From the NCBI GenBank assembly GCA_017499595.2, contig CM039006.1, forward strand, positions 1,674,001-1,738,000: a DNA stretch of 64,000 nucleotides. The letters run 5' to 3'. Of this stretch, positions 3,601 through 39,267 are shown in pieces; within the stretch, counting starts at the first letter, position 1, and every line of letters starts with the position of its first letter. Origin of the DNA: Psilocybe cubensis (taxonomy: Eukaryota). The notes under the pieces were generated by a model, which did not search any database, was not told the DNA's origin, and saw nothing but the letters and a program-made list of their open reading frames with translations. A program made the translations under genes and the position numbers.

Positions 3601-4146
3601 GCAATCCGCAGTAAAAACGATTGAGAAGATGCTCACTATCAACGTTCTCTAGCGCTGGATCGGTCTATCGCTCCACAAGCTATTACGTCCAACAAGTAAG
3701 AAGCGCGTTAACCCACTTGGAATGTGCTAACATCTATTGCTCAGCTTTTCAGCTTGAACAGAGGTGATGAATACCTCCCGAGTACGCTACCGGAGCAGCT
3801 TGGGACGGTATTTTGGAGTGTAGTAAGGAACACATCGACAAAAGAAATTATCATCAAGGTGGGATCTCAGTGAAAACTCTTTGTATGGCAACATTCATTA
3901 TAGACACGTCCTTCTTAGATATCCAACACAGCGAGCACTCCTTCCGCTCTCACATTTGTCCTCCCGTTCAAAAACGTTGCCTCCAAAGGATCTTTGCAAC
4001 TTTTGACCGGCCCTGCAACGTCAAGCAACACCCCCACCAATCCCAACCTCTTCGCTCCAGTTACCAGCACAATTATAACTGGTGAAACTTTCAACTACAC
4101 GGCTCCCGCAGTCAGTGTCAACGTCATTACTATCAAAGCCTCCTAA
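677..4146 (+). CDS. Secreted GH51 alpha-L-arabinofuranosidase, very many short exons
   Basis: Signal peptide MIKARTLLLALSLALVG. Spliced motifs FEDISNSGDGGLYAELLQNRAFQ, FFRLPGGNNLEG, GLGLMEYLHWCED, YVEVGNEDFF, EAAFMTGLERNSD. Stop TAA at 4144-4146. Confidence 0.93.
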
Positions 4147-4785: not shown

Positions 4786-7135
4786 ATGGCTGAGAGAACG
4801 GACTATAGTGGCTCTCTCTCTGGGAGTGCTATTGTGTACGTTGTTTTACTACCACATCGGATCTGACTCTCACTTTCAAATGACGTAGCATGTCCGAGCC
4901 CCAAACAGACGACAACTCTGCTACTCAGTGGCAGTAAGTACACTTCCATCACTTTATTTTCCACAGTGAACCTTATCACCCATTAGCCATGGCCCGATCA
5001 CCTCGAGACTATTCGCTTTGATTATCGGCATTAATACATACGATGATTCCAAGTACTTTTTTAATCTGCGAGGCGCCCGGGCAGATGCGCTTCGTCTCAA
5101 GGCGTACTTGGAGGAAAGCCTCCTGGTTCCAGAAACTCACATAAAACTTCTACTGGACAAGCAAGCCAGTCGACAGAAAATCCTGGAAACCTTAGAGGAA
5201 CTGGCCAACGATAAACGCATCGTCAGAGATGATCCGCTACTCATATTTTTTGCTGGTCATGGGACAGAGATCGAAGATGTGGTGGACGGGGAGAAAAGCA
5301 AGATACAAATGATTGTCCCAGCTGATTACATTGCCATCCCCGATTTCATTATTGGCAGGCTACTTGACTACATTGCTGATAACAAAGGCAACAACATCGT
5401 ATGTGCCAAAAGACACCACGTCACATGGCCTTTATGTTGACTTCCTGCTATCCCCCAGACTGTAATTTTTGATTGCTGCAATTCTGCATCGGGCACACGC
5501 GGCTCGATTGTCACCAGCAACCCATCCGCTCCCTTGACTCGCGCTATTGATCCAAGCCATGTCAAATATAAGAAAGACCTCGACCAGGTGTTGCTACGGA
5601 GAATTCGACGAGCGACACAGGATGGACTTAGAAAGTTGGGAGTACAATCGCACATGCTACTAGCAGCCTGCCAATCCTCCGAAGAAGCCAGAGAAAAAAA
5701 CGGCTTCGGTGTTTTCAGTTCTGCATTGCTAAATCTCTTTAAAGCCAAACCACCGACCATCCTCCGATACTGCGATATTCTTGACCAGATGGATGTTATA
5801 TTAGGGTGAGTCGATCCGTAGCTCTATGTATAACGTGAAAAAGTAAGAAATGGCATGCTTACCCATTTCTTCTGCCACAGGCAAAATCCTCAATGCCAAG
5901 GCCCCTTCCAGGACAGGATGTTATTCGACGGAAAATGCAAAACTCGCTCCATCAAAAGCAAATTCAAGGTTCAAACTGGGCCCTTCCGAGATCCAATGTC
6001 AAATATGACCATCCACGCAGGTAGCGCCCACGGAGTCACTAATGGTGCCGTGTTCGAGGTTTATGACTCTGTGGATGCCTCATTCACACGGCCCCTGGCA
6101 AGGGCCACCGTTCAACCAGTGATCAGGGCATTTTGTTCCCCTGCAATCTTGGATCCAGGACACTCCCTACACAAATATGATTCCAAAACGCTTGTCGCCA
6201 TCCAAGTCAGATCCGGAGAGAAGGAAGCCCTTCGTCTATACGTACCTCCTGGTGATCCTTTCCGCAAAATCTATTCCGACGCGATTTAAAGTCAACCCGG
6301 TCGCGACAATGGGTTATCCTGCATTGTACTTACCGATCACAAGGACGAGACCACCAAGTTACAGGCTACGATGAACGCTGCTAATGATGTCGTATTCGAG
6401 TTGTGCGACGAAGCGGTAACAAAATATGGGGTTTCGAGGCGTTTCCCTCCAGTACCTACTGATGATGGCCACACGCTCCCCTGGGTCTTGAATAGGGTTG
6501 CGCACTACTTCTCGGAATTGAACCGCCGAAACGTCAATTCCCAACTGGCTGAGAAGGTCACAGTAGAATTCTATAAATTACAGGAACTCGATGATGACAC
6601 CGACGAGTTGGAAAAGGTTGAACCAAACCTTTGCAAGGGCAACATTATCGATTTTGTGGTTGAAGATGGTTCTCCATATGGAATCAAGCTAAGAAATAAG
6701 AGCGATCATGACCTCTATCCATATGTGTTCCAGTTCGGAAGTGATCTGTCTATCTGTATGTCTCTTTCACAACACGGGAATATGGATTGATCTGACACAG
6801 TCGAAGATGAATATTTCCAAAGTTCAAAACCAGGGATCACGTATAAGGTTGAACCGACCTTGAAAAAGCACGACGAGATCACCCTTGGATTTGGCCCCAA
6901 CAACTATGCAGAGCCATGTTCATGTGTGCTCGAGGACAGTCAGAACACCGACGTCACTTTTCTGAAAATATTCTTGTCAACCACAGCTCTAGATCTTAAT
7001 CACATCAAGCAAGAAACTCCCTTCGAAACTACCCGTGCCCTGAAGACATGCACAAAGCCACGTAAGGATAAATGGGATGCCCTTACGATACCAATAATCC
7101 AACGCAGGGCAGGTACTTCTTCTACCTATAGCTGA
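4786..7135 (+). pseudogene. Metacaspase (peptidase C14) domain protein with long C-terminal extension; in-frame TAA at 6287-6289 (pseudogene, truncated allele, or stop removed by an intron)
   Basis: LFALIIGINTY...LRGARADA, IFFAGHG (catalytic His) and VIFDCCNS (catalytic Cys). ORFs 5855..6289 and 6371..6790 are in the same frame, separated by a single TAA. Confidence 0.75.
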
Positions 7136-7617
7136 ATGGCGGGTTCCGCCCCCGCTGAAGGATATATAATCGATCGTGCGATGGATTGTAAAATAACCAA
7201 ATCAGACAAGCTTGAAGTAGGTTCCTGTCGGAGGGATAAACTCACTGACACCATGATTATGTTTACGATAAAAATGTATGTTTCGAAACCTGCCCAATGT
7301 TTACTGTCATCTCAACATTGATCCCCATCGAGCGCACCACCAGTCATGAATACCATCTCGTGCCTTTTAATCACCGCACTGTCGGCCTCCGAAACCTGCC
7401 CAATGCTTCTTTGTCGTCTACACCATCGTCACACTCGCCGGCCTGCAGAATTCTCTGGCTAGTGCCATCGGGGGCACAAATGCTTTACAATCTCGCGTTC
7501 CGTGGATCGAGGGACTGACTTGGAAAGATATACAACATCTTTGAATACGAATTCCGACGACTTTGAAGTTTGATGGAAAGCAGAAAGCTTGTTCCATTGC
7601 ATAATCTATACTTTTCA

Positions 7618-8025
7618 TTACAATGGCTCTGCAGCCGAGATATACAGTACTATGAAGAACAAGAGTTAGAATGAAAATAATTAAAGAGTTTAATGGCTAT
7701 ACCATTGTTTCCTCGAACAAAAGTGTCTCCATATCGGTTCGTGATCACCCCATTGACATGTTCTTCTGTCTGCTCGAGAGCGATGTTCATGAACCCATCC
7801 AAGCAGGATAAAACACCTTGAAACAGGTTCAAATATCATCTATCAACGCGATAGAATTGACAACGTACCTCTGTAATCCACACCAGAAGTCAACCGAACG
7901 ACAACCCGCTTTCCGACAACACCCTTCAAAAAATCGGTAGGCGACCCTGTATGTGACTGAGGCGGAGGTGGAGGAGGAGATTGGGATTGACGAGACGGCG
8001 ATGGTGGCCTCGGGCTCTCGTCCAT
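7618..8025 (-). CDS. LSM6: U6 snRNA-associated Sm-like protein LSm6
   Basis: SPTDFLKGVVGKRVVVRLTSGVDYRG|VLSCLDGFMNIALEQTEEHVNG...YGDTFVRGNN|VLYISA; two introns. Confidence 0.95.
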
Positions 8026-8906
8026 GGCGTTGAATCAAAACTGCGTCGTAGGTTGTGAAGAATGTGGTGGTCGATGTCGAAGATTTGCTGCAAGACACCA
8101 TTGTTGAAATTTGGGCCAATATTTACACAAAATCTGTGTCCGTAAGAGGTAAGTTGTGATATTTTCACAAACCTTCCAGAACTGGTTTGAAATTCTCCCA
8201 AATAAGGACAAAATAAGGGCCAAACTCTTGTTTGATTTCTATTCAACCTGCAATTCATTCTGACACCTTGATCTGGTATTTCATGTATAAGACAACTTCA
8301 AGGTTCATATTTTATTCAAAATGTAGGAGAAATTTCTACGTTGAATTCCATTTAGACTATCTGAGCAAGATATGAGTCTTTCGTAGAAGTCAGTCTTGTA
8401 TTCGGAGAATCCCGACGTGTTATACCCTCAAAACGAGTCTTACATGTAATTACACTCGATATATAAGTACACGGGCTAATAATTTATTTGTCTCATGGGT
8501 CGTAGTCTGATACTGAGAATAGTAGTGGCATGTAGTTAGAAGTATAGATGACAAGGGTGACGTCCAGCAGATAGCACCAATCTATGAGTATACCGAAGTA
8601 CTAGGTTGAATGTTTGTTGAATGCTGCCTAATATTCATTGACATCTTGATGCCGTCCTACGGTAGCAATATCACAGAAAGTAACACTCGAAAATTACTCT
8701 GGAATCGATTTTTTTTTTAAAAAAATTACTCTGGAATACTTACCAATGTAATATATTGTGGTACCTTGCCGTTACATTGTCACAAGTGCTATCTTAATCT
8801 ACCAGGAGCTCCCCGATTCCTTGATGGTTGCGCCCATCAATCACCTCAACTGGACAGCCATGGCCAGCGACGGGTGTGAATACATCCTCTTCCGCTTTCC
8901 CTCATA

Positions 8907-10342
8907 ATGAACCTCTTTAGCAGGAAGAAAATTCCACAAAAAGACACAAACCAGGAGGAAAATGAAGGCCAGAAGCGCCCTGCTAGTACGTAGTTGTCCA
9001 AGAGTCGTTCACCCCATAATCTAAATTGCAACTACAGATACTGCTTTTAAGCAACAGAGGCTCAAAGCATGGCAGCCCATCCTGGCTCCAAAGACGGTTC
9101 TGCCCCTAGTGTTGCTTCTTGGTCTTTTATTCGTGCCCATCGCTGTCTTACTCATCTGGGGTTCGTCCCTCGTGACGGAGATTGCGATTGACTACACGGA
9201 ATGCGAAAACCAGTCGGCGTCGTCGTCAAACAGCTCCCTCAATTTCGTCAATATCCCATCGAACAAATATTCCTACAAACTTCGTTCTAAAGATGCAAAA
9301 GAATCCCACGAAATTTCCACACCTCGTTATGCATTTCTTGACAATACCAACAATGCCACCGTAACGGATGTTTCTGACAAGAAACAATGTGCTATTCAAT
9401 TCCAAATTCCTGCAGACCTTGAGCCATCCGTTCTTCTCTACTACAAACTTACAAACTTTTACCAAAATCATCGTCGCTACGTAAAGAGTTTGAATTCCAA
9501 ACAACTAAAAGGCAAATTTGTCAGTGCTACAGATCTTGACAAAAGCGACTGCAAGCCTCTCTCTTCCATAGACGGCAAGGCTATATATCCATGTGGTCTT
9601 ATCGCGAATTCTGTATTCAACGGTTTGTTGACCATGGTCGTATTTTCAAACGCTTAAATCTGACAAAACTACATCAGACACATTTTCCAACCCAGTGTTG
9701 CTCAACCCATCCGGGTCCTCGCAATCGTCTCAGACCTACGAGCTCTCTTCAAGAAATATTGCATGGCCCGGAGAGGCAAATAAATATGTTTCATCACCTA
9801 TTATCCCTGGTGGCTATTCTAGCTTTGATGAGATTGTCCCCCCTCCTAACTGGCACAACCGCTTTCCAAATAATTATACCAAGGAAAATCCCCCTCCCGA
9901 CCTCCACAATGACGAGCGCTTCCAGAACTGGATGCGAACTGCGGGGCTTCCTACCTTTACAAAACTCTATGGCAGAAATGACAACGACACGATGCAAAAG
10001 GGTACATACCAAATAATTGTTGGACTAAGTGCGTAAAGTTGATCCCCAAAATACTGCATGATTATGACCTTGCTTGTAGATTTCCCCGTCCTTTCATACA
10101 AAGGAACTAAATCGATTGTTATATCCACTGTCTCATGGTCTGGTGGAAAGGGCAATTTCTTGGGATGGTCGTACATTGCTGCAGCAGTAGTTTATCTTTT
10201 GCTCGCAGTTTTCGGCGCCGCCCGTCAGCTCATTAAACCAAGGTCAGATTTTTGCATATTGCCAGAAGAATTCACTTAACATGATGACAGGCGTATTGGA
10301 GATATATCTCATCTGTCATGGAATCAACAAAAGATCCTATGA
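8907..10342 (+). CDS. CDC50: CDC50/LEM3 family flippase beta subunit
   Basis: KRPANTAFKQQRLKAWQP, YYKLTNFYQNHRRYVKS, IYPCGLIANSVFND, FQNWMRTAGLPTFTKLYG, GGKGNFLG. Confidence 0.95.
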
Positions 10343-10764
10343 TGTTCCTGTAACGCACGCCCCTAATTGTTGTTTACACACACTTGATATTGGTCTGGCC
10401 GATGATCGATGATGACTTACTAGTACGAAGTTTTCACCGATTGTAACATGAGATCTTAGTTTTGTACTCGTAGACGACCAATATACGATTGGTGCTGGTT
10501 TACATTGTGAGAAACGCGTGTTTCATGTTTTTCTGAAACTTTATTCTTCTTCCCTCTTTTTTCTCTTTTTTTCTTCATTTTCCTCTTTCGACACCCACAC
10601 CTATGAACGGAAAACCTGTAAGGTCTCTTGTAAAGCGTTGTTTTTTACATGTTGGTTCTCATCTTCACAATAAACCATCTTATCTTATCTATAGATTGCA
10701 TAATGTAATCGCTAACCCCGTCGGGTTTAACTTGGTTTTTATTTCGCACTAACGCACTCCAATC

Positions 10765-12015
10765 ATGGACGTCGATCTCCCATACAAAGTTCAATCCATC
10801 GCTGAATTGCCAGGCTAGTTTCTCCCTTATTTTTCACAAAAATCCTTTTGTTAAGCCCCAATGGAATACAGGTCACGAAGACCGTGCCTGGCACGTAGCT
10901 TGGAACCCGGCAAAACCATTGCTTGCATCTTGTTCAGCTGACAAAACCGTCCGACTCTATTCCTATGCCTCCAGCTCAAATGAAGCAACCCCGGGACTCG
11001 AATTTCAATTGATAACTAGCATACCAACAGGGCATGCGAAGACAGTGCGCTCCGTCGCGTGGGCGCCTGCAGGCCAGACACTTGCGACCGCATCGTTCGA
11101 TTCCAACATCGGGATATGGGAAAAGGAAGCGGATGAGTGGGAGTGTATAAGCACACTAGAAGGACATGAAACGGAATGCAAGTGTATCGCATACTCCGCT
11201 TCCGGGACGCTATTGGCGAGCTGCAGCAGGGATAAGACCGTCTGGATCTGGGAAGGTATGTCTATCATATCCCCCTGTTACTGTTAATATCGTTCAACTT
11301 TGACCACCCATAGTACACCCTGACGGCGATTTCGAAACCATTTCTGTTCTTATGGAACACACTCAAGACGTAAAATTTGTCAGCTGGCATCCGATAGAGG
11401 AGATTCTTGCCTCTGCTTCTTACGACGACACAATCAAGCTTTACATCGAAGATCCCTCTGACGACTGGTATTGCTTTTCTACGCTATCTGGGCACACTTC
11501 AACAGTGTGGTCTCTAGCATGGTCCCCGGGGACCAGCAGCTACCTCGCATCGTCAAGCGACGATAAGACCGTGCGAGTCTGGAGGCGAGTCGCTGAGCAT
11601 AAATGGGAGTGCGTGCTGGTGCTCGGAGGCCATGATAGGAGCGTGTACAGCGTCAGCTGGAATAAGGCCCCCAAATCCGTCCGAAAATCTACCCCTGGTT
11701 GTCTTGGTTGGTTGGCGAGTGCAGGTGGGGACGGGAAGGTTCTTATATGGGAGCTCTCGGTACGTGGATATTCTACTCTACCCCAATGATCTATTCTCAT
11801 CTCGCACACAGGAACCCATCTTGGAGGATAACACAAGCGGAAATGTCAGTCTTCTTCCACCTCGGCATAAACTGATTGCATCAATACCGTCAGCGCACGG
11901 TGTACACGATGTTAACTCGGTTGTTTGGTGTCCTCGAGAAGGATATGAAGACCTGCTAGCTACCACCGGCGACGATGGCTACACACGCGTGTGGAAAATT
12001 GTCCCTACGACATGA
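10765..12015 (+). CDS. CIA1: Cytosolic Fe-S assembly WD40 protein Cia1
   Basis: [61 protein letters not shown]. The first intron appears to use a GC donor (10814). Confidence 0.95.
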
Positions 12016-12661
12016 CGTAGCCGTACACAAAAAATGAATAGATGTTATCTAGAGGTCAAGCTATGCTGCCGAACGACGTCGGGATGCTTCCCAGGATAGA
12101 GCAGTTGCCCAATGCCCTCAACAGAACTGTTGGGACCTTTATTACTTGCAGGGATTTATGGTGAAGAGGCTTCGTAGAGTAGCATGACGCAGTATAAATA
12201 GACGGCAATTAATAAGCGCCCTACCACCGCAGAACTTTATGGCGCCTGCGACAGATACTCCCAACCGTTACGACATATATATATACCAACCAAGAAACTT
12301 GCCACATATTTGTACTTCATCTGAACCGTGAGGCTTGACTTGGCGTCGGCCTCCAATAAACGTTTTTTTAAGGTGGTGACTGGGATAGATGTAGATCGAG
12401 TTTGATCAAGAAACAATCAGCTTACCTGGATTCCTCAGCAAGGCTCAGATAAAGCCACGGTCCTCCTGGTTACAGCAAAGGGGCACAATACCAAAAGGCG
12501 ACTCTAACAATGTCGCATAAATCCGCACAAGACCAGTATCACACTCCTACGGCATCGCCTGCGTATTTTACGTGACATGCAATTCAGTTTGACCGTGTTC
12601 GACGGGAGTGCTGCTCCGCCATGGTGTATTATCAATTAGGCGAAGGGATAGTGAGCTCTGG

Positions 12662-13540
12662 CTAAAAATAGTTGAACATGATCCCAACACCCAATACCCC
12701 AAGCAAAGAAGTGAAGGTGTTCGTTCCGATTGTTGTCGCTGCGCTAGTCGGAGAGGGTGACGCTCCTGTGGAAGTCTTCGAGGATTGGGTACCAGCGGAA
12801 TTGGATGTTTGAGCGTCATCTGGGACAGTGTAGCTATGCATCACCACATCATCAGTTCCTTCGTAACGGGAAAGTATAGCACGGCATACATAAAATTAGC
12901 CATAGCGAAGGTAAGGAACTTGCCATCTGGATCCACGGTCATATTGCGATTCGGAGAGGGACCTTTGATGCTAAGGCGTATAGTGTGTTCGACATTTGGG
13001 TCGAGATTCGTGGCAGAGAAAAGAGGTGCACAGGTGAATGGAAGTGAGTCTACAACACCATCGACATCTTTGGAGGTCCCGTCCAGATCGACGGTGTAAA
13101 CGGGCGAAAGAGAGTTAAGAACACCCGTGATATAAATCCCAGAACCTATGATCCACGAATCCAGGTCAAGCTATAGAACTCTTTATGCACGAATGCAAAA
13201 AATACCTTTAAACTTATAGGATGCAGATGAATCCGCGCTCTGGCCTGCTGCAATGCTATCTGAACAGTTTGATGGCAAATTGTAGCAACCTGCTTGTCCA
13301 GCTACAACATTTCCATTTGAATCGATCCTACAGATGTTGGCGTCACCGGTCCCAGGACCATACTAATCAACAGATATAAAGGTTCTTTAGCTTCAGTTCA
13401 TGATATTAAATGGAGAAAAGGGGGTATGCCTGAATGGTAGGATCGGTGACGGGTACGGTGATGTTCTTTTGTGCTGTAACGACAGCCGCCAACGAAAGAA
13501 AGGCAGCAAAGATGACTGGCTTTACATTAAATGTGTACAT
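12662..13540 (-). CDS. Secreted, probably GPI-anchored cell-surface protein with Ser/Thr-rich stalk
   Basis: Signal peptide MYTFNVKPVIFAAFLSLAAVVTAQ, Cys-containing beta-rich core (GSGIYITG...YTVDLDG), S/T-rich linker and hydrophobic C-terminus LLGVLGVGIMFNYF; four exons. Confidence 0.8.
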
Positions 13541-14453
13541 GTTTGAAGAGAAGATAAAAAGAATGTGATTGAGAGAGTGGATGGAGCGCAAAAGAGAACC
13601 TGGTCGTTAACAGACGAAACGTATGATGGTGGTATGAAACTGAAAGGGACTCGACAACGATTTGCAATGAAATTCACCAAGTTTACATGTGATCCAATAC
13701 AATTGATGGCATCACAGACTTGGCCGCTTTACGGCAAACAGAGGCCTCGTTGAATAGTCAAAAGGCGGCCCTGTTGGCTGAGGGATTTGAAGTGGGCGTT
13801 GGCAGAACTGCATATTGCGGTACTCATCACCCGCGCGGATATCCAGTCCGAGGAAGGAGTGGTGAGGCTAGCGGTGAGAGTGAAGGAATCATCCGCGAAA
13901 TTTCTCCATAACGACTCGATTGAAAACTGCCCCAGGGTACTTCTCCTCCAGAAGCGTGTTCCTCCACACAAGGTATCGTCTTTGGGAGAAGTTGCGAAAT
14001 TTCGTTCGTACCTGCATCATGATCTCGTTCGAGTCTCATCCAACAGAAAGGCCGGCATTAACAATAGATCTGGCTCTTGAGCGCCAGATGAGCGCTCATT
14101 ACATTTACACTGATAAACTTCTGGAAGACTTCGCTATATCAGGCACAAAACACATAAACGGAAATCAGTAAAAATCTACAAATTATGCTGCATCTTGCCT
14201 GTAGGTCTTCCAGGTTCCTCCAGGTAGTAGGGTGTCGTGTGTAACTTACGGCATGCTGACCCAACTTTAAGTCCTCCGAATCATGTTCAGAACTTGACTA
14301 CAACCGGTGGAGACGGTCAAGGTGCTACATATAAACCAGTGCAAACAGCCTCGCAAGTGCGCATGCATTTAATGCCGATATCAATTGTACAATCATTTGT
14401 TTGAAGTCCACTACTGGCAAAGTCATCCCAGTTCACCTTTACTGTCAAATCCA

Positions 14454-27448: not shown

Positions 27449-28412
27449 TCATTTAATCCACAAGTTTCTGTTATCCTGGAAGAATTGCAACAAAGTTCTT
27501 TTCCCCACAAACTTCTTGTTATCAGCTTCCTCCAAAAACTTCTCTTCCGATCCCGCGGCAATCTTATGCTCGATGTCAGCAAGGTATGCCGCATATTCGA
27601 GCGATAAGAAATGACTGAGAATTTGAGTCTTTTCTTCGACTGATATATGCCTGTGAGTTATTGTCCTTCCCAGGACAGTAGAAAGAATGTGGGCAGCCTG
27701 AAGACACATGGTTTTGAGTGGAGCTTTTCGTGAGATTGGAAAGGTCATACCTCGTCATACGAGTGTAGCTCAGGTCCTAGAATTAAAAATTCTTCTTGAA
27801 GGGTTTTATCCGCGGTCAAAGCTTTAAAAGCAGCTTCTGCTATGTCTTGAGCAGCAATGAAAGGAACCTTGCCATTTCCTGACGTTGTAACTATCTCATT
27901 GTTCTCCCTGATACTGGTGTAGAACATGGTAGCGAAATTATCTGTCGAATATGCGGTGTGAGTGTACTGAATAGTGTCGGGCAACAAAATAATAACTGTG
28001 CAGACATACCAATGAACCAGGTAGGCTTAAGTACTGTAAATTCAACGTTAAGGTCCAACAGAACTTGGTGGATGACTCCCGTTGGTCGATCCCCAGGCTG
28101 AGATTGAGTAGATGTCAAGGCGACAAATCTCTTTACTCCCTTTGACACAGCCAACTCCAGGAATGGCCTCACATACGGCAGTTGTTCAAAGACGTTGTCG
28201 GGACCGACAATGTATATTTTGTCGATATTCGGATCGGCCTGGAAAGGATTTTCGTATGTCGTTGGATCGAGCCAATTAAATGTGACGGCTTTGAAAGGTT
28301 CAGGCGCCTTCCCAGAACGCGACGCAATGAGGAATGGCACATTAGCGCTGTGGAGGAGTTTGCAAAGTATGGAACCTGTTTTCCCGTTGCCGCCTGTGAC
28401 GAGGATGGTCAT
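27449..28412 (-). CDS. NmrA-like NAD(P)-binding protein, EasG (agroclavine dehydrogenase)-like, copy 1
   Basis: MTILVTGGNGKTG, LKPTWFI|DNF, GKVPFIAAQDIA, GPELHSYDE. Confidence 0.88.
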
Positions 28413-28951
28413 TTTGATACTGTGGATGACCATGGCTTTCTCCAACCCAGATTAAATGTAAGTCCAACTCGGAGGTATCATTCTATTACCTCCCAAATTT
28501 AGCCCGCACGCGACGTGTAGCCACCTCATGTCCGCAAATGTAGCTGTGTTGAATTATGTTTGTTGTAGCATCACCGAACTGCTTGCCAGTCAATCTTATT
28601 CATCATGAATCCTACGCGAAATTACAGAAATTTGCTTAGTGTAACGTTCTGTCATAGCCGCCCGGACTCCGTCTAACGTGCACAGTTTTATTACGAATAA
28701 GATCGGAGGTAACAAACAACTTAGCGACACGATCGATATACTTTCATTATTGCAGACACTTGGCATTAGAGTGGCTGACAAAACTTATCATAAATCTTCT
28801 AATTCATAAATCGATCGATTGGTCATCGGACACGGTTTTGAGGATTTCAATGTGACGGCGATAATGAATGTATACTCCATATGTTGTCATCCCTAAGTTT
28901 CTCTACTTCATCAGAACAAATTATCGATCTATCGTCGAAAGCTCAACCCAC

Positions 28952-29897
28952 CTATTTGATCCATATATTTCTGTTTGCTTCGAAATACTCCTTCAACGTG
29001 TGTTTGCCCACGTACTTGCGATCCTCACTCTCATCTAATATTTTTTCCTCTGCTCCCGATGCGATCAAGTGTTCGACATGTGCCAGGTGTCTGGCATACT
29101 CAGGCGCCAAAAAATATCCGAAGATTTGGGTTTGTTGCTCGACTGTGTGTCGTTTGTGAACGATCTCTCTCCCTAGGACAGAAGAAAGGAGCTTGGCTGC
29201 CTGTTATAAATACGTGAGTTATAGAAGACCATATTCTAAGCGTGAATTACCTCGTCATATGAGTATAGCTCTGGCCCAACCAAGAAGTAATCTTTGTTAG
29301 GGGACCTTTCAGCAGTAAAGGCATCAAAAGCGGCTTGGGCTATATCTTCTGCTGATACAAAAGGTACGCGCCCATCTTCTGCACAAGAAAATATTTCATT
29401 CTTCTCTCTGATGCTCATATAGAACGTGGTAGAGAAATTTTCTAAGATCTCTCGTTATTGAATTTGCAGAACGCTTAGGAGGGTTTGTGCCACTTACCGA
29501 TAAACCAAGTCGGTCTGAGAATCGTATAGTCGACTTTCAAGTTCAACAGACATTGATGTATTGTGCCCAATGGAATATCCCCAGGTTCAGATTGTGTGCT
29601 TGTGATAGCTACAAATCGTTTAACCCCCTGAGACACAGCGAGTTCTAGGAATGGTTCTACATGGCGAATGGCATCGTAGGCCGACGGTGCGACAATAAAG
29701 AGTTTATCGATGGTGGTACCGGTCTGGAAAGCGTTTTTGAAAGTTGCGGGATTGAACCAATCAAACTCAACAGCTTGGAATGGTTCTGGTGCTTTCCCCG
29801 AGCGAGAAGCAACAAGGACTGGTTGCCCCGCTTGGTGGAGTAGTTTGGCAAGGGCGAGCCCAGTTTTCCCGGTTCCACCAGTAATGAATGTTGCCAT
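28952..29897 (-). CDS. NmrA-like/EasG-like protein, copy 2
   Basis: MATFITGGTGKTG, LRPTWFI|ENF, GRVPFVSAEDIA, GPELYSYDE; same two introns as copy 1. Confidence 0.88.
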
Positions 29898-31602
29898 TTC
29901 GACAATCCTTTCGATGGATAGATTCAGTGTGATTTATAGTTACCTGTGTACGACAGTGTACGGAGAATATTCGAAGAATTTGCAATAACTCATCGACGTA
30001 GGATTACGAGTCTTTACGTAAGTAAAGATGAGTTCTTTTATCCCCACAACCCAGCGAGCAAAAATGTCCTCGCCAATTGTCCCCATCAAAATATTATTGA
30101 TGCGATCAATGTCGTTACCGCTATCGGTATTTTCCTTAAGCGGTCACCGGACCCCCTAAGCAACCCCTTTCCAATTCATTCTGAGACTTCTTTTTACCAT
30201 TGGTTACTTTAAAGGTTGTTTTTGATTTGTTTTGATCGCAATGTGAATGTGCGTTTCCATAAAATTAATTATACCCAACAACAATAGTCCTACTCAATTC
30301 ACTTTTTTGCGTTGTTGTTTAATTTTTAAAACCATGTGGAACCATCTAGCCAACGTGCTTATATATTGTACTAATACTTAGAGATGGAACAAATGCACTC
30401 TTTGAACTATGGGTCTGAAAGGTTGGAAATAGAACTGTGCAGGCACACACGTTCCTTAATATCGGTAGCTTCATCAATCAGAGTTCAAATAGAAATAATT
30501 ACGCGTTCTTGGGTTCTGGGCGTTCTGTACTATTTGAATTTGATTTTCTGATTCATGATCGTTTCTCACGCATACCAATTTGTTCTTCCCCTATGTCGGG
30601 CGTCTATCGGCTTACGGTTAATATATTTATTGACGTAGTATAGACAATGCACTTTTCTCCGCACTGTTTTACCCATGGCTTCCGCGTTATCCCCCCGTTT
30701 CCAACAGTATGTTCACTGTTTTATCTCATTTGGTTATTACTTATTTTTTAGAGTCTTTCCGCCTCCCATGGACGATATGTACATGGATCAGATGGATCTG
30801 AAAACCCTCTACCATTTCTCTTGAACTTGCAAGAAGCTAAACGACCGCGTTTTGGGCTATATGTGCCGCGCCTTCCGTCCCAAAAATTTATTTGCTCCTA
30901 TCTTCAAACCCAATGAACATTTGCTGTTTTGTCTTCTCCAGTTCAAGACTGGCCTGGTTATTTCAGGTTCCACCGTTTTGCATTTTACTTGTTTTAGTGG
31001 TCCAACGCAAAGCGTGGCATGACAAGACTTTACATCTCACAATTGTATAAAATATTTTTTAATCTAGATTTATATAACATAGTTAATATATATTAATATG
31101 TTCTGAATGCACAGCTAGATACTGGGCAAGGTTATGATTAATTACTATGACTTAGGTCTACTACAAGCTTAGTTGTGTCAGACACAAAAAATAGCTGCAC
31201 AGGTTATAAGGCCTAATTGTAAGGAAGAACTTGTCTATTATAATTTTCATACCTGCTAAATATTGAAGAATTCCAGATCTGCTGGGAGAATCCCGTATGG
31301 AAAACTGATGGAAGAATGCTCATGTGTATGGCTGCCCAAGTGGGGACATATTTCCCATAAATATAATTTTCTTATTTTTGAAAAGTGCATCAAGAGTGAA
31401 ACAATATTGTGTGCAAAAACATTTGTTTGGTGCGCATATTTCTTTTTGGCATAGTTTGATGTTGCTGTGAACACAATTGGCTGTGTGGAAACATATTTCA
31501 AGCATAATTTGCAAGTGTTAGTGCATTATTTCTTCCCCAAAATACATTCAATGCATGGAAAACATTATTCAAAATGACCATCTCTTGACCAAAGTGGCCA
31601 GT

Positions 31603-32054
31603 GCTCAATGCAAATTGAGTGTAGTGACCGTGGGAATATCCTGCGTACAGTGTGCGCAGGATATTCCCACGACCTGCTTATTAATTCACGGCCAGTACAA
31701 ACACCACAGCAAGTAAAATATAATAAGATCATCTAAACTAGGACTGAAAATAATTATTATTGCCAAAAATACTTGTATTTTACCTAAAGTATATGCAATG
31801 CATCTCAGTAATATATCAGGAATTACCAGAGAAGTTCAAGTTGCTCAATGCAAAGTGCGGCAACCGTGAGAATAACTTGCATACACTATATGCAAGTTAT
31901 TTCCACAGTCTGCTTATTAATTCATGGCCAGTATGAACAGCACAACAAGTTTAATATGACAAGTTATTTGAAGTGGCATTAAAGATAATAGCTAGATACA
32001 TAATGTTTATTATTCTTTATTCTATGCCACCACAGTCTGCTAGTCATTCATGCT
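31603..32054. repeat. Degenerate ~237-bp tandem duplication, each unit containing a 43-bp palindrome
   Basis: TGCTCAATGCAAA...palindrome...CTGCTTATTAATTCA(C/T)GGCCAGTA at ~31603 and ~31842; partial third copy near 32030. Confidence 0.75.
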
Positions 32055-32519
32055 AAATTTTTTTTGATAACAATAAAGCATTCTATTTACCTCTACTTGC
32101 CGTTAGAGGTGTATAAAGCATGCAAAACAGTTGGTATGTAATTGATTGTGACTAATTAATGGCCTTAAATCAGTTGAATGAGGTCATTATTATAAAATTT
32201 TTGGTTATGAGCGATAATTATCTGCGTCAAAATGTTTAACTTGCAATTAAAAAGTCATAATGTAATGGTATCTAATTTTGTTTTCTACCATATGGCAGCT
32301 AACCTATCTACCTAGCTAATATCTAGTATTTTAATTTCCATATTCCCTTGGTAGGAACAAAAACTAACAGAAATTCTATGATAGTAACCGATTATTAAGT
32401 CAAGCATACCGGTTAAGTAAAAAACCGGTATTAATCACGCAATTTTGATGGCATCAATGATTTACTGATGGGGACAATTGACAAGGACATATTTTTGTAC
32501 AGTGGGTTGTGGGGATAAA

Positions 32520-33185
32520 CACTGCGGGTGCCGACTGCTGTAAGTTAAACATACAGCAATAAACTTACATGTCTTATGTAAGTTTAGGTGTATGTTCAAC
32601 TTACAGCACATGTGTCGGGGAAACAAACCTTTAACAAAGACATGTTGTATTTGGTGGCTGTATGCCGGCCAAACACAATTGCTGTAAGTAGACTGTAAAT
32701 AGAATAAACACCTATATTACACAAATTCTGTTTGTCCGGTGTTAGTAAAACATACACATTTTCTTTAAGTAATAGAAACAGCACTTACTGTAAATAAAAA
32801 TTACACACAAAGAACACTATTTGTGTATGTCAGACTTACACCATTAAATGAATTGAAAAACTTGTGTAAGTATAACATACACAAATTGTGTTCTTTGTGT
32901 GTAATTTTTACTTACAGTAAGTGCTGTTTCTATTACTTAAAGAAAATGTGTATGTTTTACTAACACCGGACAAACAGAATTTGTGTAATATAGGTGTTTA
33001 TTCTATTTACAGTCTACTTACAGCAATTGTGTTTGGCCGGCATACAGCCACCAAATACAACATGTCTTTGTTAAAGGTTTGTTTTTCATACACATGTGCT
33101 GTATGTTGAACTTACAGCGAAACTTACATAAGACATGTAAGTTTTCTGCTGTATGTTTAACTTACAGCGGTCGGTGCCCGCAGTG
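32520..33185. mobile_element. Foldback MITE with CACTG termini (CMC/EnSpm-like), 3-bp AAA TSD
   Basis: CACTGCGGG...CCCGCAGTG ends; arms of ~320 bp around a ~22-bp spacer. The uninterrupted homologous site at ~30030 has a 4-base T run versus 3+4 A here, which gives a 3-bp TSD. Confidence 0.88.
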
Positions 33186-34395
33186 AAAAGAACTTGCTTT
33201 ACTTACATAAAGTTTCGTAATCAATCGTGCTAATATATGGATTCCGGGTGACATGGACATGTATGTCGAGCACAGATATGCTCTTTCCGTTCTTTCCTGG
33301 ATGATGTCCATTGGATTTACTATCATGCCGCATCCCAAATATCCGGACAACACCACAGCGGAAAAAATTTTGAAAATGGAAAAAATCGTCCTTCAGAAAC
33401 ATCCTCTTCATCGACATTACAATACCACTGGAGTGGTCGTTAACCTATGGTGCCAAGGTTCTTTTGTCCAACTGATTACGACTTGTCAATCGGTGGTAGA
33501 GTGCATTTTGGGGTATCATAGCAGTATGTCCCCAATGTCATGTGTCAAAACAATGTTAACTTCAATTTTGTTCTACTGCAGCCGGCGTCATGAATTTTGT
33601 TACCTTTGAGAAGGTGTACAGCTTGTATCCAAATGCTACCTTTGGATATCAAGTCTCTCTGTTGCAACCTTCTGCCGACCTCAAGCGCACGCAAAAATTT
33701 CTTGCAAAATATCATTCCCGTGGCTTGAAATTTGTTCTTTCCATTCCATCGCAAACTTTGAAAATGAACCGCCATATCCAAAGCAGGATACAGTCTATCA
33801 GGGACAACGTAAATGTTGGGTATAGTTCATCTCGTGGTCATGTTCTTGTTGTGCTGGATTACGATCCTTATCTAGAGTTGTTCTCTCCTGGGATTAGACG
33901 GGTTGGCGACAGGCATTGTTGGGTTTATTCTTTGCCTCTTTTACCCAAAGCAAATCAGACTTCCTTTGTTGAAGCCAATTCATGGGCATTGTTGCTCAAT
34001 GAATTTGATTGTTTGCATTTTGGTGTCCGTCGCATCAGCGGTATCGCATTAGATTTTCACTACACAGCGGCAGATGTTTACCAATTACACAAGCGTGTCA
34101 AAAAAGCTATCAAATCCTGGGAAAGGGGTATAAGGTGTGTGCTCTTTAGTTTTAGTATTTGTCAATTTAATTCCTGTAATGTAGGCAAAAAGATGACTGT
34201 GTACATGCAACTGTTTTGTATTTGCTATCCAGAAAGGCAGATATTTTTTGGTTGCATCGCCCTCAACCACAAAGCCTCTTGTGGAATGGATATTTGTAAT
34301 TTCTTCTATCCTTAGTCAAATTTTTGTTCGAAATAAACTTGTGTTCTCGTCCTCATTCTTTTTGTCTTAATTTGTAAGTTTGACTTGCGGATGAG

Positions 34396-34577
34396 CGTGG
34401 GAATATCCTGCGTGCAGTGTACGCAGAATATTCCCACGGTCAACCTCTCCCGATATTCAGCCGAGTGTGGGAATATTCTGCGTACAGTGTACGTAGAATT
34501 CTCCCACGGACTTCCTCGCCGATATTCAGCCGAGTGTGGGAATATTCTGCGTACAGTGTACGCAGGATTCTCCCATG
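34396..34577. repeat. Three tandem 43-bp palindromes, period 69-70 bp
   Basis: GTGGGAATAT(C/T)CTGCGT(A/G)CAGTGTACG(C/T)AG..T..CCCA(C/T)G three times, with near-identical linkers ending CCGATATTCAGCCGAG. Confidence 0.9.
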
Positions 34578-34721
34578 GGGTGCCAACTAACACCTTCAGA
34601 TAATTTCTGTCATGAAAATGACTTGACAAATTATTCCTTGTTATTTACAATGTTCACACAAATGGATTGATTATTTGTTCAGCACATTTATGATATCCTT
34701 GTCTTTCTATGTACATATGTA

Positions 34722-35696
34722 TTAATCTTGGGACATAGTATTGCTATTGTGGACTGTGTCCTCATTTAAGCGCATATGTGCCATCCTCTGTTGCGTGTCT
34801 TCAATGTCAATCTGACCTTTGTACAGCTGCCTCTTTGTCCTACACAAAACAGCAACCTGTCTTTTCGCTGGAGTATAGCGTGACCGCATTCTGAGAATAT
34901 CAGCTTTCTGTTGGAAGTTATGAATGGCTATGAGACTGTTCAATGTAACATTGCTTACCTCTCTTGCCTCCTGGTCCAAGACAAGTATTCCGCAAAGAGC
35001 GACAACAAATTTGTACTTGTTTCCTTGGGCAGGAAATGCGACAAAGGCAACACTGATCTCGACAATGTCTCCAATTCGTATGGAGGCAGGATTATAAGAA
35101 TAATATCTGTTGCAACATGATATTAGTTTGGTTGTGATGTGTTGTTGGTATTTTCTAAACATACCTGGCTGTTCCGTCAGGAAGTATCTCCCGACAAAGA
35201 AACTGTACCTTGTTATCGATTGCGTGGATGAAACTGTCCCCTACCATGGATGCCAACACGTTATCAGGGTCGACCAGGGGATGAAAACCTATGTTGTCAG
35301 ATTTGTCTTGATATGCGGATACCTTCGTGAAATATTGGCTATGCGCATGGAAAACATTGAAACCCGTGTCTTTGTAAAGAACTGGGTCATAGCCGCTGAC
35401 GCTGTCCGCGGGAAAATTGTTTGCAAAACGGAGGAAAACTTCTTCTAGCTTTTCCATCACCTTATTGAACACAATGTCTCCGAGTCCCGTGATAGCAATG
35501 GTGGTACGTAAATATGGTTGTTGCTTGACCGTTCTGTCGCGGCTGTAACAGTCCTCATTTGTAATTAATTCACCTCAATGGAGTGGACGTACGAAGCAGG
35601 CTTTGCCATTGGTGGTAGCATCTTGTCGCTAACTATGCCTTGGAGTCTGAATATCACTTCGTCCATTGCACCAATATCCACGTCAAAGTTGGACAT
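34722..35696 (-). CDS. Element-borne hypothetical protein (second cargo gene; may be 5'-truncated)
   Basis: Four exons splice in frame: MSNFDVDIGAMDEVIFRLQGIVSDKMLPP...VDPDNVL...HAIDNKVQF...PASIRIGDIVEISVAFV. Confidence 0.7.
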
Positions 35697-36202
35697 ATTT
35701 ATATTATATTATATATATATTATATTATTACAAAGCGTGACGCTGAATCGTAAAGACTCGTCATGCCACGCTCCGCGGTGGCCCACTAAAACAAGTGTAC
35801 GATTTAAATAGGGGGAGCCATCCGGATGTTGATATGCGGACAAGCCTACCGCGCCTTGCTCTCATTGGTTGAAAGCGATTTGTCAGCAGCATTTTCGTAA
35901 TAAGCCAACCCAAAACCGCACAGCGCAACGGCAAACATCCATAACATCCATTAACTCTCGTCAAGAACACCGGTTCAATGTGTACGGTGAGTATGGAGCT
36001 CATGAATATCGCTTTATGTCAGCATCCTAAGTGGAGGATGACGCTGGATGACTTTGGGAAAGTGCTCGATTGCTATGATACTCGACATTGACATATAAAT
36101 ATACCAGAAGAAACGAATTACTGGGAGTGAATACCGATGGGTCACAAAGTCCAAACACGAGATTGTAAAATGGAATGATATCTTCGGGATAGAGAAAAAG
36201 AA

Positions 36203-37691
36203 TCACGCTACATGGGCAACCTGGGCATGTTTTGCAATCTCGGCGTAGCTGTGTTCGTCGCGGTGCTCATGGTGGGCAATGCCTTCAGCATGGAGGCTTC
36301 CGTGAGATTCATGGTGAGCAGCGTGGAGACTTCCATGAGATTCGTGGTGAGCAGCATGGCCGTTTGAACCCGCTCTATATGAATATCCGTTACCAACGGT
36401 AGCAGAGCTGAATTGACCACGACCGTATAGGTGGAGAGACTCAGCCGCTGTAATTGACGCGCTTGCGCTTGCGTGACCAACAACACCAGACACCAGTGCT
36501 TCCATCTGGGCAGAGACGTGCTTCATAGCGGAGGCAGTAATGGCCGTTATGGCTGTCTCCATTGCGATGGTGAGCATCTTGTGCATTTCGACGGTGACGT
36601 GTTCGACAGTGGATTCGGCAATGCTAACAAGGGTCTCTCGCATGACGGGGTGACTGGCGAAGACGCTGAGATCAGGCTCGGCGATGACCTTAAACTTCAT
36701 CCAAGGGACTTCGCTGAGCATGACCGAAAGCTTTTTGTTGAGTTCGACGACGGTGAGAACACCATTGGCGTTTCGGAGTCGGGTGCGAAGGTCCAGGCGA
36801 GCAATCCTGTATTGGTCGCCTTTGTGGACTTTGTATTTGACGACCAAAAAGAATCCGTCGATGGCGTAATCGAAGCAGTGGGAACTGAATCCTTGGGCAT
36901 CCCACTGGAGATGTCCATCAGAGAATCCGATAACTGTATCGAGGTCGATACTGGAGTGGACAACCGTGCCATCGATACGATGACACTCGGCATGAAGGAA
37001 AGTACCCTTTAGCTCGAACTTGGCACAAGTTTCCTCAATTAACAAAATTTGGCTCTCGCTAAGGAAAAACATGAGAAAGATACTTCAACCCCTTTTTAAT
37101 AGTGGGCGCTTACCTTCGGAATTTTGTAGATGAGAATGTACTGTAAGAAGAAGAAGACTTCGTCTCTTTAACAGACGTGGTGGAGACTGTAGTCGAGGTC
37201 GAAGTAGCAGAAGCGGCAGAGAACATGCTACTGCCACTCGCAGCGCTGGCGACACTAGAAACGCTGGCTTCAGATATACCTCGAGATAATTCCGGCGGCG
37301 CCAGATGTTTTCCGGCGCTAACATGCTCGAAGGTTAGTCTGTTACGTAGAATTTATGCAAAATATACTCACGGATCAAGTGCATGAGATTTAGGGATGAC
37401 AGCCAAGATACCGTCTTGATTTTGAATGTAAAGATTGAGATCAAGCTTGCTTTCTACCATTTTCCCGCCGAACTTCAGTTTAGCTGAGAGGACGCCATTA
37501 TCAATGTGGACGTCTTCAGCATGGTGGCTGAAGCCTCGGCCTCCCCATGTGAGTTTGCCTTCGGTGTTTCCAATGTAGTCATTGAGTGAGATTGAAGAAT
37601 GGATGGTGGTCTTCTTGTCGGCCTTTTTGCAATCAGCAGAAAGAACACCTTTGGTGATGGTGATTTTCTCGCATGTCTCGGAAAATATCAT
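36203..37691 (-). CDS. Tandem cyanovirin-N homolog (CVNH) lectin-domain protein with helical region and His-rich tail
   Basis: FSETCEKI...LSADC...SSISLNDYIGNTEGKLTWGGRGFS...LDLNLYIQNQDG and a second copy SSIDLDTVIGFSDGHLQWDAQGFS...LDLRTRLRNANG; no signal peptide. Confidence 0.88.
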
Positions 37692-39267
37692 TGTGCCTGA
37701 AAAATTGAATGGATAATCTGAAAGTTGAGAAAGATATAAACTACGTACCTGGAACGTAGTAGGATAAGAGTATAGAATAAAGATTTTTCAAAGGGCGGAC
37801 GCGGAAAGGAAAGCTAAAACGTGTTACCTTGTTAGTTAGGAAAAGATGGAGTTTATATACTTACTACCGTGCCGAAATCTAAGATCCAAGGGTCGTCTTG
37901 AGAACAAAACACGGAGGTTCAGAGGCCGGAGAGGACAGTTTGCTAGGTTCACTAATACTCACTATGGTCACTTAAACAGGACTTGCGACTGAATGGATAG
38001 TTATCAGTCGTTCAAACCTTAAACAAAGAACAAAAATAGCCAGAGCTCGACACGACGGCGCGCCATTATAGGGTTCCGTGATTTAATTAATTCCTATGTT
38101 TCCATATTGAGGACAGGCCCCAAACAACACCGGATACAAAGCAAGAAGCCAAGATAGCGTGTGAGTCACTGGTCCAGAAAATATCCTCATATCAAGCTTT
38201 CGACGTACTGAATTTGAGACGCAAAATCTCCCCTAAAGTTAAAGCTCGTTGTACTTCATGACTGCACTGTACATTGCCCGAGATCAGGATTGCAACCTAG
38301 ACTAGGTAATGTCTTGGGAATGCGCCAGTTAGGTCTGAACTACTGAAGATCTGAAGGCCTACAGGTACCATGTCGGAGACGATCAGGCTATCATCATGGA
38401 AAAATACGCGTCGGTCAGGAATGTTGTCCGGTGTAAGTTGTCTGATTGAATTTGTGTATACGTCTAGTCAGATGGAAGAATAGCACAGAAGACGAGTAAC
38501 AACAAAAGGTCAAGATACAGGAGATATTATAGGCCCGCAAGGCATATATTTGTTTGTCCGAGGCTTTTTACACGATGCCTATTATTAATATACCCTTCTC
38601 ACTGGCGCTGTCTTAATTGACAGATCTCCCTTCACCCGCAGAGTGAATATACCGGAGACAATCCTCGACAAACACAGATTGAACAACAATCACTGTGCGT
38701 CTCCAGATTCAAAGTTATCTATTGGCCCAATTGTAGTGCCCCCTGGGCCCATTTCGTAAATTTCCACTCAAACTTTGCGCTCTTAATTATATAGGCGCCC
38801 TTCAAAACTTCTCTGGGACAACATCCAAGATGGTACGGATGGCTGTAATACCGTCAGAGAGTTTCAACTTTGGAACGAGTCTATGTGACTTCTTGCTATT
38901 CTTATATCTCAAAGCAACTTTGTTATATCTGGAACAGCTTTGCACAAAAGTCTTTTGTGCTTGACAATGGCTATGTAATTTATGCGAGCAAGTGAATCAA
39001 ACTAGCGCCGGTTGGTAACTTTTACATTGTTTTTATTCGGTGTAGATTTAGTAGGTCCTTATAAGTCATAAATAATGCTCAGCACGGGCCTGAAATATTT
39101 CCCACTTGCGCAAATATTTCAGGACAGTGAACACTCCAAATATGGTTAGTGGAAATGGTTATCGGAAGCTGTCGCATCAGATAGGCAACGGTGTGTGCCC
39201 TTCCTGCATAGATTACATTCACAAGAATGGGACATAGGGAATATGAAATGTGCAACAAACGCTCATG

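Follow-up and report, generated by a model that had tools for sequence, protein, structure and literature searches.

What kind of mobile element ends in 5'-TT...CAAG-3' is the question raised by positions 30004 to 35795 of a 64,000-nucleotide stretch of the Psilocybe cubensis genome (assembly GCA_017499595.2, contig CM039006.1, positions 1,674,001 to 1,738,000 of the forward strand), called the window below. A preliminary description of this DNA had proposed a Helitron-like rolling-circle family defined by two nested members and had presented it as a candidate for an undescribed system. We conclude that the region holds two nested non-autonomous members of a rolling-circle transposon family of the Helitron2 (HLE2) type, a reading to which we give a probability of about 0.85. 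The assignment is made because of a terminal/subterminal inverted repeat, hairpins, and relatives with the same ends that carry DUF6570 transposases. This is a new family within the known Helitron2/HLE2 kind and not a new class of mobile element. The earlier interpretation was therefore right in kind, and its family of two nested members now stands on better ground, but it was not right in novelty: TT...CAAG ends, a terminal/subterminal repeat and hairpins make up the published Helitron2/HLE2 architecture (PMC3627910, PMC5148889, PMC11417382; here and below, papers are cited from excerpts of their text).

Termini, boundaries and copies in Psilocybe cubensis

The features that define the two elements are the following (a vertical bar in a sequence marks an element boundary or insertion point).

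30004..35795, plus strand: outer element, 5792 bp, 5'-TTACGAG...AACAAG-3', no RepHel (from the empty-site joint and depth steps)
30004..30160, plus strand: left terminal sequence (LTS), common to the inner copy (pairwise alignment)
30006..30018, plus strand: asymmetric terminal inverted repeat, 5' arm (ACGAGTCTTTACG), 2 nt away from the 5' end
30011..30028, plus strand: small 5' hairpin TCTTTAC-GTAA-GTAAAGA, overlapping the 5' repeat arm (DNA fold)
30117..30144, plus strand: second LTS hairpin ACCGCT...AGCGGT (alignment and folds)
30988..33220, minus strand: inner element of the same family, 2233 bp, without genes, inside gene 1 of the outer element
35749..35761, plus strand: inverted repeat, 3' subterminal arm (CGTAAAGACTCGT), 34 nt away from the 3' end
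35765..35782, plus strand: 3' GC-rich hairpin GCCACGC-TCC-GC-G-GTGGC (fold; pairing across five sequences)
35783..35795, plus strand: 3' tail CCACTAAAACAAG, ending CAAG, with T following CAAG in every copy seen

The 24-nt 5' end TTACGAGTCTTTACGTAAGTAAAG showed two matches in the window with up to three mismatches, at 30004 (+) and 33220 (−), where none is expected. The 5' regions of both copies align over about 150 nt, to about 32407, once an insert at 32520-33185 is removed, which agrees with the match reported in the preliminary description. Its 3' match was reproduced as well: positions 35742-35795 and the reverse complement of 30988-31041 agree at 85% over 54 nt, and CCACTAAAACAAG is identical in both copies (35783-35795, +; 30988-31000, −). 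A repeat search of the window showed that ACGAGTCTTTACG at 30006-30018 is the perfect 13-nt complement of 35749-35761. This asymmetric inverted repeat and the 5' hairpin had been missed earlier, while the GC-rich hairpin near the 3' end had been recognised; it lies directly downstream of the 3' repeat arm and ends 13 nt before the outer element's 3' end. In the inner copy the repeat arms still pair, with the help of wobble pairs and a single compensatory double change (T-A to A-T), and both hairpins are retained in the same layout. The second LTS hairpin, about 115 nt in, reads ACCGCT/AGCGGT in the outer and ACCGGT/ACCGGT in the inner copy, a compensatory change, and folds at z −4.06 in the inner copy. 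Palindrome units of 40-43 nt are also common to the two copies.

Three contig sets and one raw-read run (X13) were compared with window positions 29000-36800. A joint from 30003 to 35796, skipping exactly 5792 nt, was observed in one X5 contig, with 358 nt of contig on its left side and 896 nt on its right, and in 30 X13 raw reads. This is the empty site GACGTAGGA|TGTACGATT that had been predicted, and X1 contigs carry both junctions of the filled site. The outer insertion is thus polymorphic between strains, base-exact and without target duplication, in line with the sharp boundaries that had been expected. For the inner element, a joint from 30986 to 33220 skips exactly 2233 nt in 39 X13 reads, and paralogue P0008 of gene 1 spans the insertion point without an indel (...STVLHF-I-NRAN...), so the inner insertion was equally precise. 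Each insertion joint is ambiguous by 1 nt (a T); the insertion can therefore be read either as a TT...CAAG element at an A|T site or as a TACGAG...CAAGT element at a T|N site. A T|T reading was ruled out, since a single T remains in the empty sites. The base before the element is G in one X7 contig, where the base after it is T, and T is also the following base in the bulk of the X13 loose-end reads. We also considered complementarity of the host flank 29997-30003 to the 3' hairpin and rejected it as meaningful, because the flank of the inner copy shows none.

Read depth in X13 rose from about 36 in the flanks (sum of both directions) to about 700 within the element, the steps falling in the bins of 30004 and 35795, which corresponds to roughly 20 copies. 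Just after 35796, 593 X13 reads go loose into many different continuations (agreement 0.36), which indicates that the copies are dispersed. The 39 reads from outer copies without the inner element amount to about one copy's worth, and a 20-member protein cluster (P0007) starts at the inner-element junction; both results indicate that the nested composite itself was amplified.

A separate observation concerns base composition. Between 30344 and 34673, outside the insert at 32520-33185, there are 17 sites, taken from the best-supported 40 of 409, at which over 80% of X13 reads disagree with the window. At all 17 the window has A or T and the family majority G or C, and the inferred C-to-T context on either strand is CpG in 7, CpA in 7 and CpC in 3. 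The bias looks like deamination of methylated repeats or a process resembling repeat-induced point mutation acting on the window copy.

Gene 2 and relatives with transposases in soil metagenomes

As the preliminary description had stated, the window holds no RepHel gene: Pfam showed none among 74 open reading frames (ORFs) of at least 110 aa, and tblastn with two RepHel proteins gave no match at E<=1. That description had listed two genes and a palindrome array in the outer element. These are present, but gene 2 was undersold, as it is linked to RepHel elements.

34722..35696, minus strand: gene 2, apparently intact, no stops; exons 35696-35586, 35532-35161 and 35108-34725; stop codon 34722-34724

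A HMMER search of 1.84 billion representatives gave 605 relatives of gene 2 at E<=0.001. They form a large Agaricales-wide family, and the six that were examined are unannotated proteins of Agrocybe, Pholiota, Coprinopsis, Candolleomyces and Coprinellus. The structure model of gene 2, built on a 46-sequence alignment, was confident (predicted local distance difference test score, pLDDT, 86.1; predicted template-modelling score, pTM, 0.75). All of the top 11 Foldseek matches in the PDB were single-stranded-DNA-binding proteins (SSBs) of the T7 gp2.5 type, and the matches comprised T7 gp2.5 (E 4.9e-6), DUF2815 phage proteins, the Enc34 SSB and CP312R of African swine fever virus. In the model, an oligonucleotide/oligosaccharide-binding (OB) fold with a gp2.5-type helical insert extends over most of the protein. 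Gene 2 is accordingly described here as a predicted ssDNA-binding protein of the T7 gp2.5 fold.

A scan with four gene-2 relatives returned 64 soil-metagenome loci, many of which are short contigs. RepHel was detected by tblastn in 10 of them, about 7 being independent, and the remaining 54 showed none within the available DNA. Among 23 long ORFs scanned from the loci, 7 match Pfam DUF6570, Helitron_like_N and/or PIF1. Giant ORFs with all three domains stand beside the gene-2-like gene in L012 (2651 aa) and L014 (2685 aa), and partial RepHel ORFs were observed in L011, L017, L018, L036 and L060. Gene-2 homologues lie directly beside RepHel in L011/L012, L017/L018, L036 and L060. The HUH motif (HLH/HMH) is kept in 4 of 4 Rep domains, and a Pfam scan of the relatives' RepHel ORFs showed no endonuclease domain. 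Members encoding an HUH Rep with a Pif1 helicase, which the preliminary description had proposed to look for, were thus found in relatives with the same ends. L014 is a complete 13.6-kb element, with its 5' end at 75, an SSB-like gene at 3166-3903, RepHel at 5580-13634 and the 3' end at 13677. It starts ...gttag|TTACGAGTCCTCTAGGTACTAGAGGCTCGTTC at 75, ends GGCAAG|TA at 13677, and has the repeat arms TACGAGTCC and GGACTCGTA. Gene 2 is probably not random cargo, given that its relatives adjoin or sit inside RepHel-bearing elements.

The elements of these relatives carry the same TTACGAGTC...CAAG ends as the window copies. These homologous ends came to light first in the sequence that follows the RepHel stop codon and then in searches with short motifs. 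By blastn, the window termini gave chance-level short matches only against the metagenome loci, and no match came from scanning the metagenomes for the exact 3' end with N wherever the two copies vary. Within the 168 nt that follow the stop codon of the L012 RepHel stands GGACTCGTACATGCCATGCAAAGCAATGGCCCACTCCCCACAAG|TT, plainly homologous to the window 3' end, and the 3' ends of L062 and L014 match the same pattern. The signature GGACTCGTA.ATGCC..hairpin..CAAG|T was present in 3 of the 64 loci, and GACTCGT is kept in the 3' ends of all three (L012, L014 and L062). The similarity of L062 to three uninterrupted relatives (L016/L015/L007) stops exactly at the CAAG end, and the uninterrupted site reads TTTG|TAAT.

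The 5' signature TTACGAGTCC with a hairpin was observed in 12 of the 64 loci, within a few kb of the gene-2 homologue. In a separate alignment of 12 termini, TTACGA is invariant and the preceding flanks are unrelated; the two window copies depart from the 5' consensus further in. One element is present in both L043 and L045, at different sites. Of the 12 aligned termini, 8 are preceded by A, 3 by G and 1 by T, and the base after the element was T in 5 of 5. In L011, no TACGAG was present in the 7.8 kb upstream of the SSB gene and no LTS was found there. The 5' hairpins of the relatives start from nt 3 and are strong, with z values of −5.1 to −6.1 and none of 200 shuffles as good; their inner stems vary in sequence yet keep pairing. 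For the 3' hairpin, 93.5% of cells pair across five sequences, compared with at most 52% when the alignment is slid, and one C-G to T-A compensatory pair was observed among the five.

Four further observations belong to these loci. The DNA before the 5' ends of L014 (1-75) and L043 (9134-9150, −) resembles the 3' end of another element, reading ...TTGGCCCACTTGTTAG|TTACGAG and ...CATGACAAG|TTACGAG; these junctions may be head-to-tail neighbours or a read-through product. In L042/L045, a palindrome of about 718 nt (11241-11958) lies between the gene-2-like gene and the element's 5' end, a relative place that corresponds to the window's palindrome array beside gene 2. In L050, L051 and L054, which are one element at 99.8-99.9% identity, the gene-2-like gene is followed directly downstream by a gene-1-like ORF. 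The annotated proteins P0014 (Candolleomyces), P0025 (Coprinopsis) and P0046 show a gene-2-like N-terminal half and a gene-1-like C-terminal half, and may be true fusions or merged gene models.

Placement among Helitrons

Helitron2 elements are described with short asymmetric terminal inverted repeats, a 5' T, a 5' arm 0-2 bp from the end that takes part in a 5' hairpin, and a 3' arm about 20-30 bp from the end, upstream of a hairpin (PMC3627910). In Fusarium Helitron2 elements the 3' repeat lies about 20-40 bp from the end (PMC5148889). The HELIANO survey groups such elements as HLE2 and reports DUF6570 as an HLE2-specific marker (PMC11417382). The outer element shows this layout. Its 5' repeat arm lies 2 nt and its 3' repeat arm 34 nt from the respective end, and a hairpin follows right after the 3' arm, although the hairpin energies do not reach significance by themselves. 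The 5' arm takes part in the 5' hairpin, which is weak in the window and strong in the relatives. Precise insertion without target duplication was observed in the read and contig joints, in P0008 and in the L062 comparison. The non-autonomous copies share only their ends with autonomous ones, as in published HLE2 (PMC3627910, PMC5148889, PMC11417382), and relatives with homologous ends and an HLE2-marker RepHel (DUF6570, Helitron_like_N and PIF1) are at hand in L014, L012 and L062. These RepHel proteins probably belong to HLE2, a placement taken from the DUF6570 marker and not from a tree.

There are also differences from published HLE2. The site here is a single T (R|T or T|N), whereas HLE2 usually inserts at T|T; published Helitron2 families deviate from T|T too, with TTTT|T/C in Chlamydomonas and TNAT|A in FoHeli of Fusarium oxysporum (PMC3627910, PMC5148889). 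The TTACGAGTC...CAAG ends were not met in the excerpts of the published descriptions compared. Both RPA and Ssb-like_OB have been listed among stably carried HLE domains; the accessory gene here has a predicted gp2.5-type fold and not a Pfam-detectable RPA or Ssb-like_OB (PMC11417382).

Several results weigh against the Helitron2/HLE2 assignment or against parts of it. The T|T target usual for HLE2 is missing from the empty sites, which read ...GGA|TGTACG and ...TTGA|TAAAAT. The 5' hairpin is weak in both window copies, with a 6-7 bp stem and z values of −1.95 (30011-30028, −4.7 kcal/mol) and −0.06, and the 3' hairpins of the window copies do not fold better than shuffled sequences (z −1.14 and +0.41). 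For the 3' hairpin, covariation amounts to one pair in five sequences, a score that 83 of 500 shuffles also reach. With no RepHel in the window, the autonomous partner of the host species is unobserved, and the metagenome relatives are soil contigs of unknown taxon whose gene-2 homologues are about 25-45% identical to that of the window. Gene 2 has no Pfam family at E<=0.1 except a chance-level CDC48_N match, a PDB sequence-profile search with it gave no match at E<=1, and its SSB assignment is by predicted fold only.

The preliminary description implied a variant of the canonical Helitron1 with merely unusual end dinucleotides, TT and CAAG. An A|T site is indeed writable, in 8 of the 12 aligned 5' flanks; the hairpin 13 nt from the 3' end is close to the 10-12 nt of Helitron1; there is no target duplication; and a mushroom Helitron family with a non-CTRR end (CTTG) and AT specificity has been reported (PMC4289320). 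We nevertheless consider this variant improbable. Neither 5' TC nor 3' CTRR is present, as both window copies and relatives have TT and CAAG. The terminal/subterminal inverted repeat and the 5' hairpin, which Helitron1 lacks (PMC3627910, PMC11417382), are both present, and the transposases on same-ended elements carry the HLE2-specific DUF6570 (PMC11417382). That the region is no transposon family at all, only a segmentally duplicated block whose shared ends came from recombination or assembly artefacts, can hardly be credited. Near-uniform depth over the whole 5.8-kb composite, nested insert included, would suit such a block, but the 593 reads that run past the 3' end continue into many different sequences (agreement 0.36), independent runs show the presence/absence polymorphism to the exact base, and the same ends stand on unrelated metagenomic contigs with RepHel genes.

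A further alternative accepts Helitron2-type elements and takes both genes for ordinary captured host genes without a role in transposition. Helitrons often capture genes (PMC4289320), about 19 of about 20 copies have a broken gene 1 and the composite was amplified nonetheless, the 605 gene-2 relatives are spread Agaricales-wide, and 54 of the 64 loci show no RepHel in the available DNA. This last point is weak evidence, many loci being short contigs. Gene-2 homologues, on the other hand, lie inside the complete L014 and beside RepHel in L011/L012, L017/L018, L036 and L060, and in 12 of the 64 loci such a homologue has the 5' end of the family within a few kb. An ssDNA-binding fold would also suit single-strand transposition, as do the RPA-like genes of plant Helitrons (PMC4683698, PMC11417382). 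On balance, we regard it as rather unlikely that both are captured genes without such a role. The Helitron2/HLE2 assignment itself is common to this alternative and to the reading preferred here.

Among described elements, the rice Mothra 'mother' element is the closest published parallel for the outer member. It lost RepHel and kept a single-strand-binding protein gene, its termini are homologous to those of a sister family presumed to be autonomous, and close relatives differ in its presence; it is a plant element with an RPA-like SSB, whereas the present one is fungal, with Helitron2-type ends and a gp2.5-type putative SSB (PMC4683698). HELPO1/HELPO2 of Pleurotus ostreatus share the Agaricales host, AT-type insertion without target duplication, a subterminal 3' hairpin, a CTTG end in one family, and carried genes of unknown function in few species. 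They are set apart by their description, which in the excerpt gives T[C/G]...CT[A/T]G ends and mentions no terminal inverted repeat (PMC4289320). The DINE-1/HINE Helentrons of Drosophila are likewise short non-autonomous HLE2 derivatives, but their partners encode an endonuclease domain and insert at T|T (PMC4067079). Helitron2 has already been reported in Agaricales (PMC12730594). A literature search, with Repbase and survey supplements outside its scope, gave no prior description of Psilocybe Helitrons or of a Helitron-gp2.5 link. The gp2.5-type fold predicted for the accessory protein, together with its link to the unannotated agaric family, may be new.

Gene 1, inserts, neighbourhood and proposed history

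The remaining features of the locus are as follows.

30675..34296, plus strand: gene 1, broken; exons ~30675-30986 / 33221-33525, 33582-34135 and 34183-34296 (tblastn of P0008/P0007)
31629-31671 and 31863-31909, no strand: two palindrome units of ~43 nt inside the inner element
32520..33185, no strand: palindromic miniature inverted-repeat transposable element (MITE), 666 bp, CACTG... ends, within the LTS of the inner element (repeat search and reads)
34397..34575, no strand: three 40-nt palindromes repeated every ~70 nt, in the interval that separates the 3' ends of genes 1 and 2
35695..35728, no strand: AT-rich simple repeat just upstream of the 3' terminal sequence (sequence; reads appear cut there)

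The number of units in the palindrome array varies among copies, as seen in joints from 34575 to 34393 and from 34446 to 34533 in X1/X5 contigs. No Rfam family was detected at 29500-36300 at the gathering score. With an AT-rich repeat ahead of its 3' repeat arm and stem-loop, the gene-less inner element resembles the layout of DINE-1/HINE.

Gene 1 has an in-frame TGA at 30822-30824 (TGG to TGA; W in paralogue P0008) and is also split by the inner element. Its N-terminus is F-box-like, and it contains the motif ISGS, 13 residues, then PGDMDMYV, which we tentatively take to resemble a nucleotidyltransferase signature. Pfam gave nothing usable for the ORFs of either carried gene or for 11 relatives, and a PDB sequence-profile search with the gene-1 family gave no match. 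The language-model search returned only unnamed fungal clusters, with an F-box on 11% of the members of one cluster, and a feature score of 0.91 to a Gad2-family cluster. The AlphaFold2 model, built on a 9-sequence alignment, was too poor for a structure search (pLDDT 45.7). Near-identical paralogues of gene 1 and gene 2 are Psilocybe cubensis hypothetical proteins in public sources.

The MITE at 32520-33185 is outside the Helitron family. It has 322-nt arms, 95% complementary, and a 3-bp duplication (AAA); its CACTG-type ends and 3-bp duplication form a pattern that we take to be typical of CACTA/EnSpm-like elements. About 500 X13 reads show the site without it, by a joint from 32516 to 33186 that skips 669 nt (the MITE and 3 nt), which makes it a later hit, in this copy and at most a few others. 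Loose ends belonging to the MITE itself were seen in 760 reads at 32520 and in 406 reads at 33185; with its ends CACTGCGGG..., the MITE is a separate high-copy family. Elsewhere in the inner element, loose X13 reads were observed before 31327 (642) and after 31361 (714), the latter mutually agreeing (0.94). Either most inner-element copies differ from the window copy at 31327-31361, or another repeat abuts there.

The window looks fungal, with short introns, genes of the CDC50, Sin1 and CVNH (cyanovirin-N homology) types, and tandem NmrA-like genes. The tandem NmrA-like / NAD(P)-binding paralogues lie at 27745-28451 and 29236-29933 (−), and the outer element sits about 70-110 nt upstream of the start of the second. 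As this site is empty in X5 and X13, strains differ in the promoter region of the NmrA-like gene. Just downstream of the insertion are two neighbouring CVNH genes at 36206-37084 and 37371-37787 (−). About 30 nt upstream of the insertion, at 29940-29975, the flank resembles the central part of the element's palindrome unit (ACAGTGTACGGAGAATATTC matches 18/20), and the X5 empty-site contig carries this flank as well. The similarity may be chance, a remnant or a targeting cue.

For the mechanism, we propose that RepHel made elsewhere in the genome would nick the 5' end and unwind in the 5' to 3' direction. Termination would take place at the 3' hairpin/CAAG signal, and pairing of the two repeat arms may help to define the end. 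A single-stranded, probably circular, copy would then be integrated by RepHel in front of a T without target duplication, the preceding base being mostly A and sometimes G. In the history proposed here, the short inner element would have landed in gene 1 of the outer element, the composite would then have been amplified, and the CACTA-like MITE and point mutations would later have hit the window copy.

By predicted fold and gene linkage, the outer element may be a 'semi-autonomous' derivative that still supplies an accessory ssDNA-binding factor. We suggest, as a tentative possibility, that a fungal Helitron2 lineage with TTACGAGTC...CAAG ends carries a dedicated SSB module of the gp2.5 fold that is hidden from domain surveys, with a nucleotidyltransferase-like partner adjacent or fused in some members, and that RepHel-less members keep the SSB for their own single-stranded intermediates. 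If so, the RepHel-less elements would be 'semi-autonomous' parasites of autonomous elements, and the gp2.5-type fold would point to a gene having been exchanged long ago between viruses and Helitrons.

The locus gives a base-exact description of a recently mobile agaric Helitron2 family, with about 20 copies, polymorphic between sequenced strains, one insertion of which sits in the promoter region of a gene. Finders based on TC...CTRR would miss this family, and the signature TTACGAGTC / GACTCGT..hairpin..CAAG could serve for finding relatives in fungal genomes. A large unannotated Agaricales protein family is linked to Helitrons and to a predicted ssDNA-binding fold, and the link through gene 2 suggests an accessory function that can be tested, in parallel with the RPA-like genes that plant Helitrons carry.

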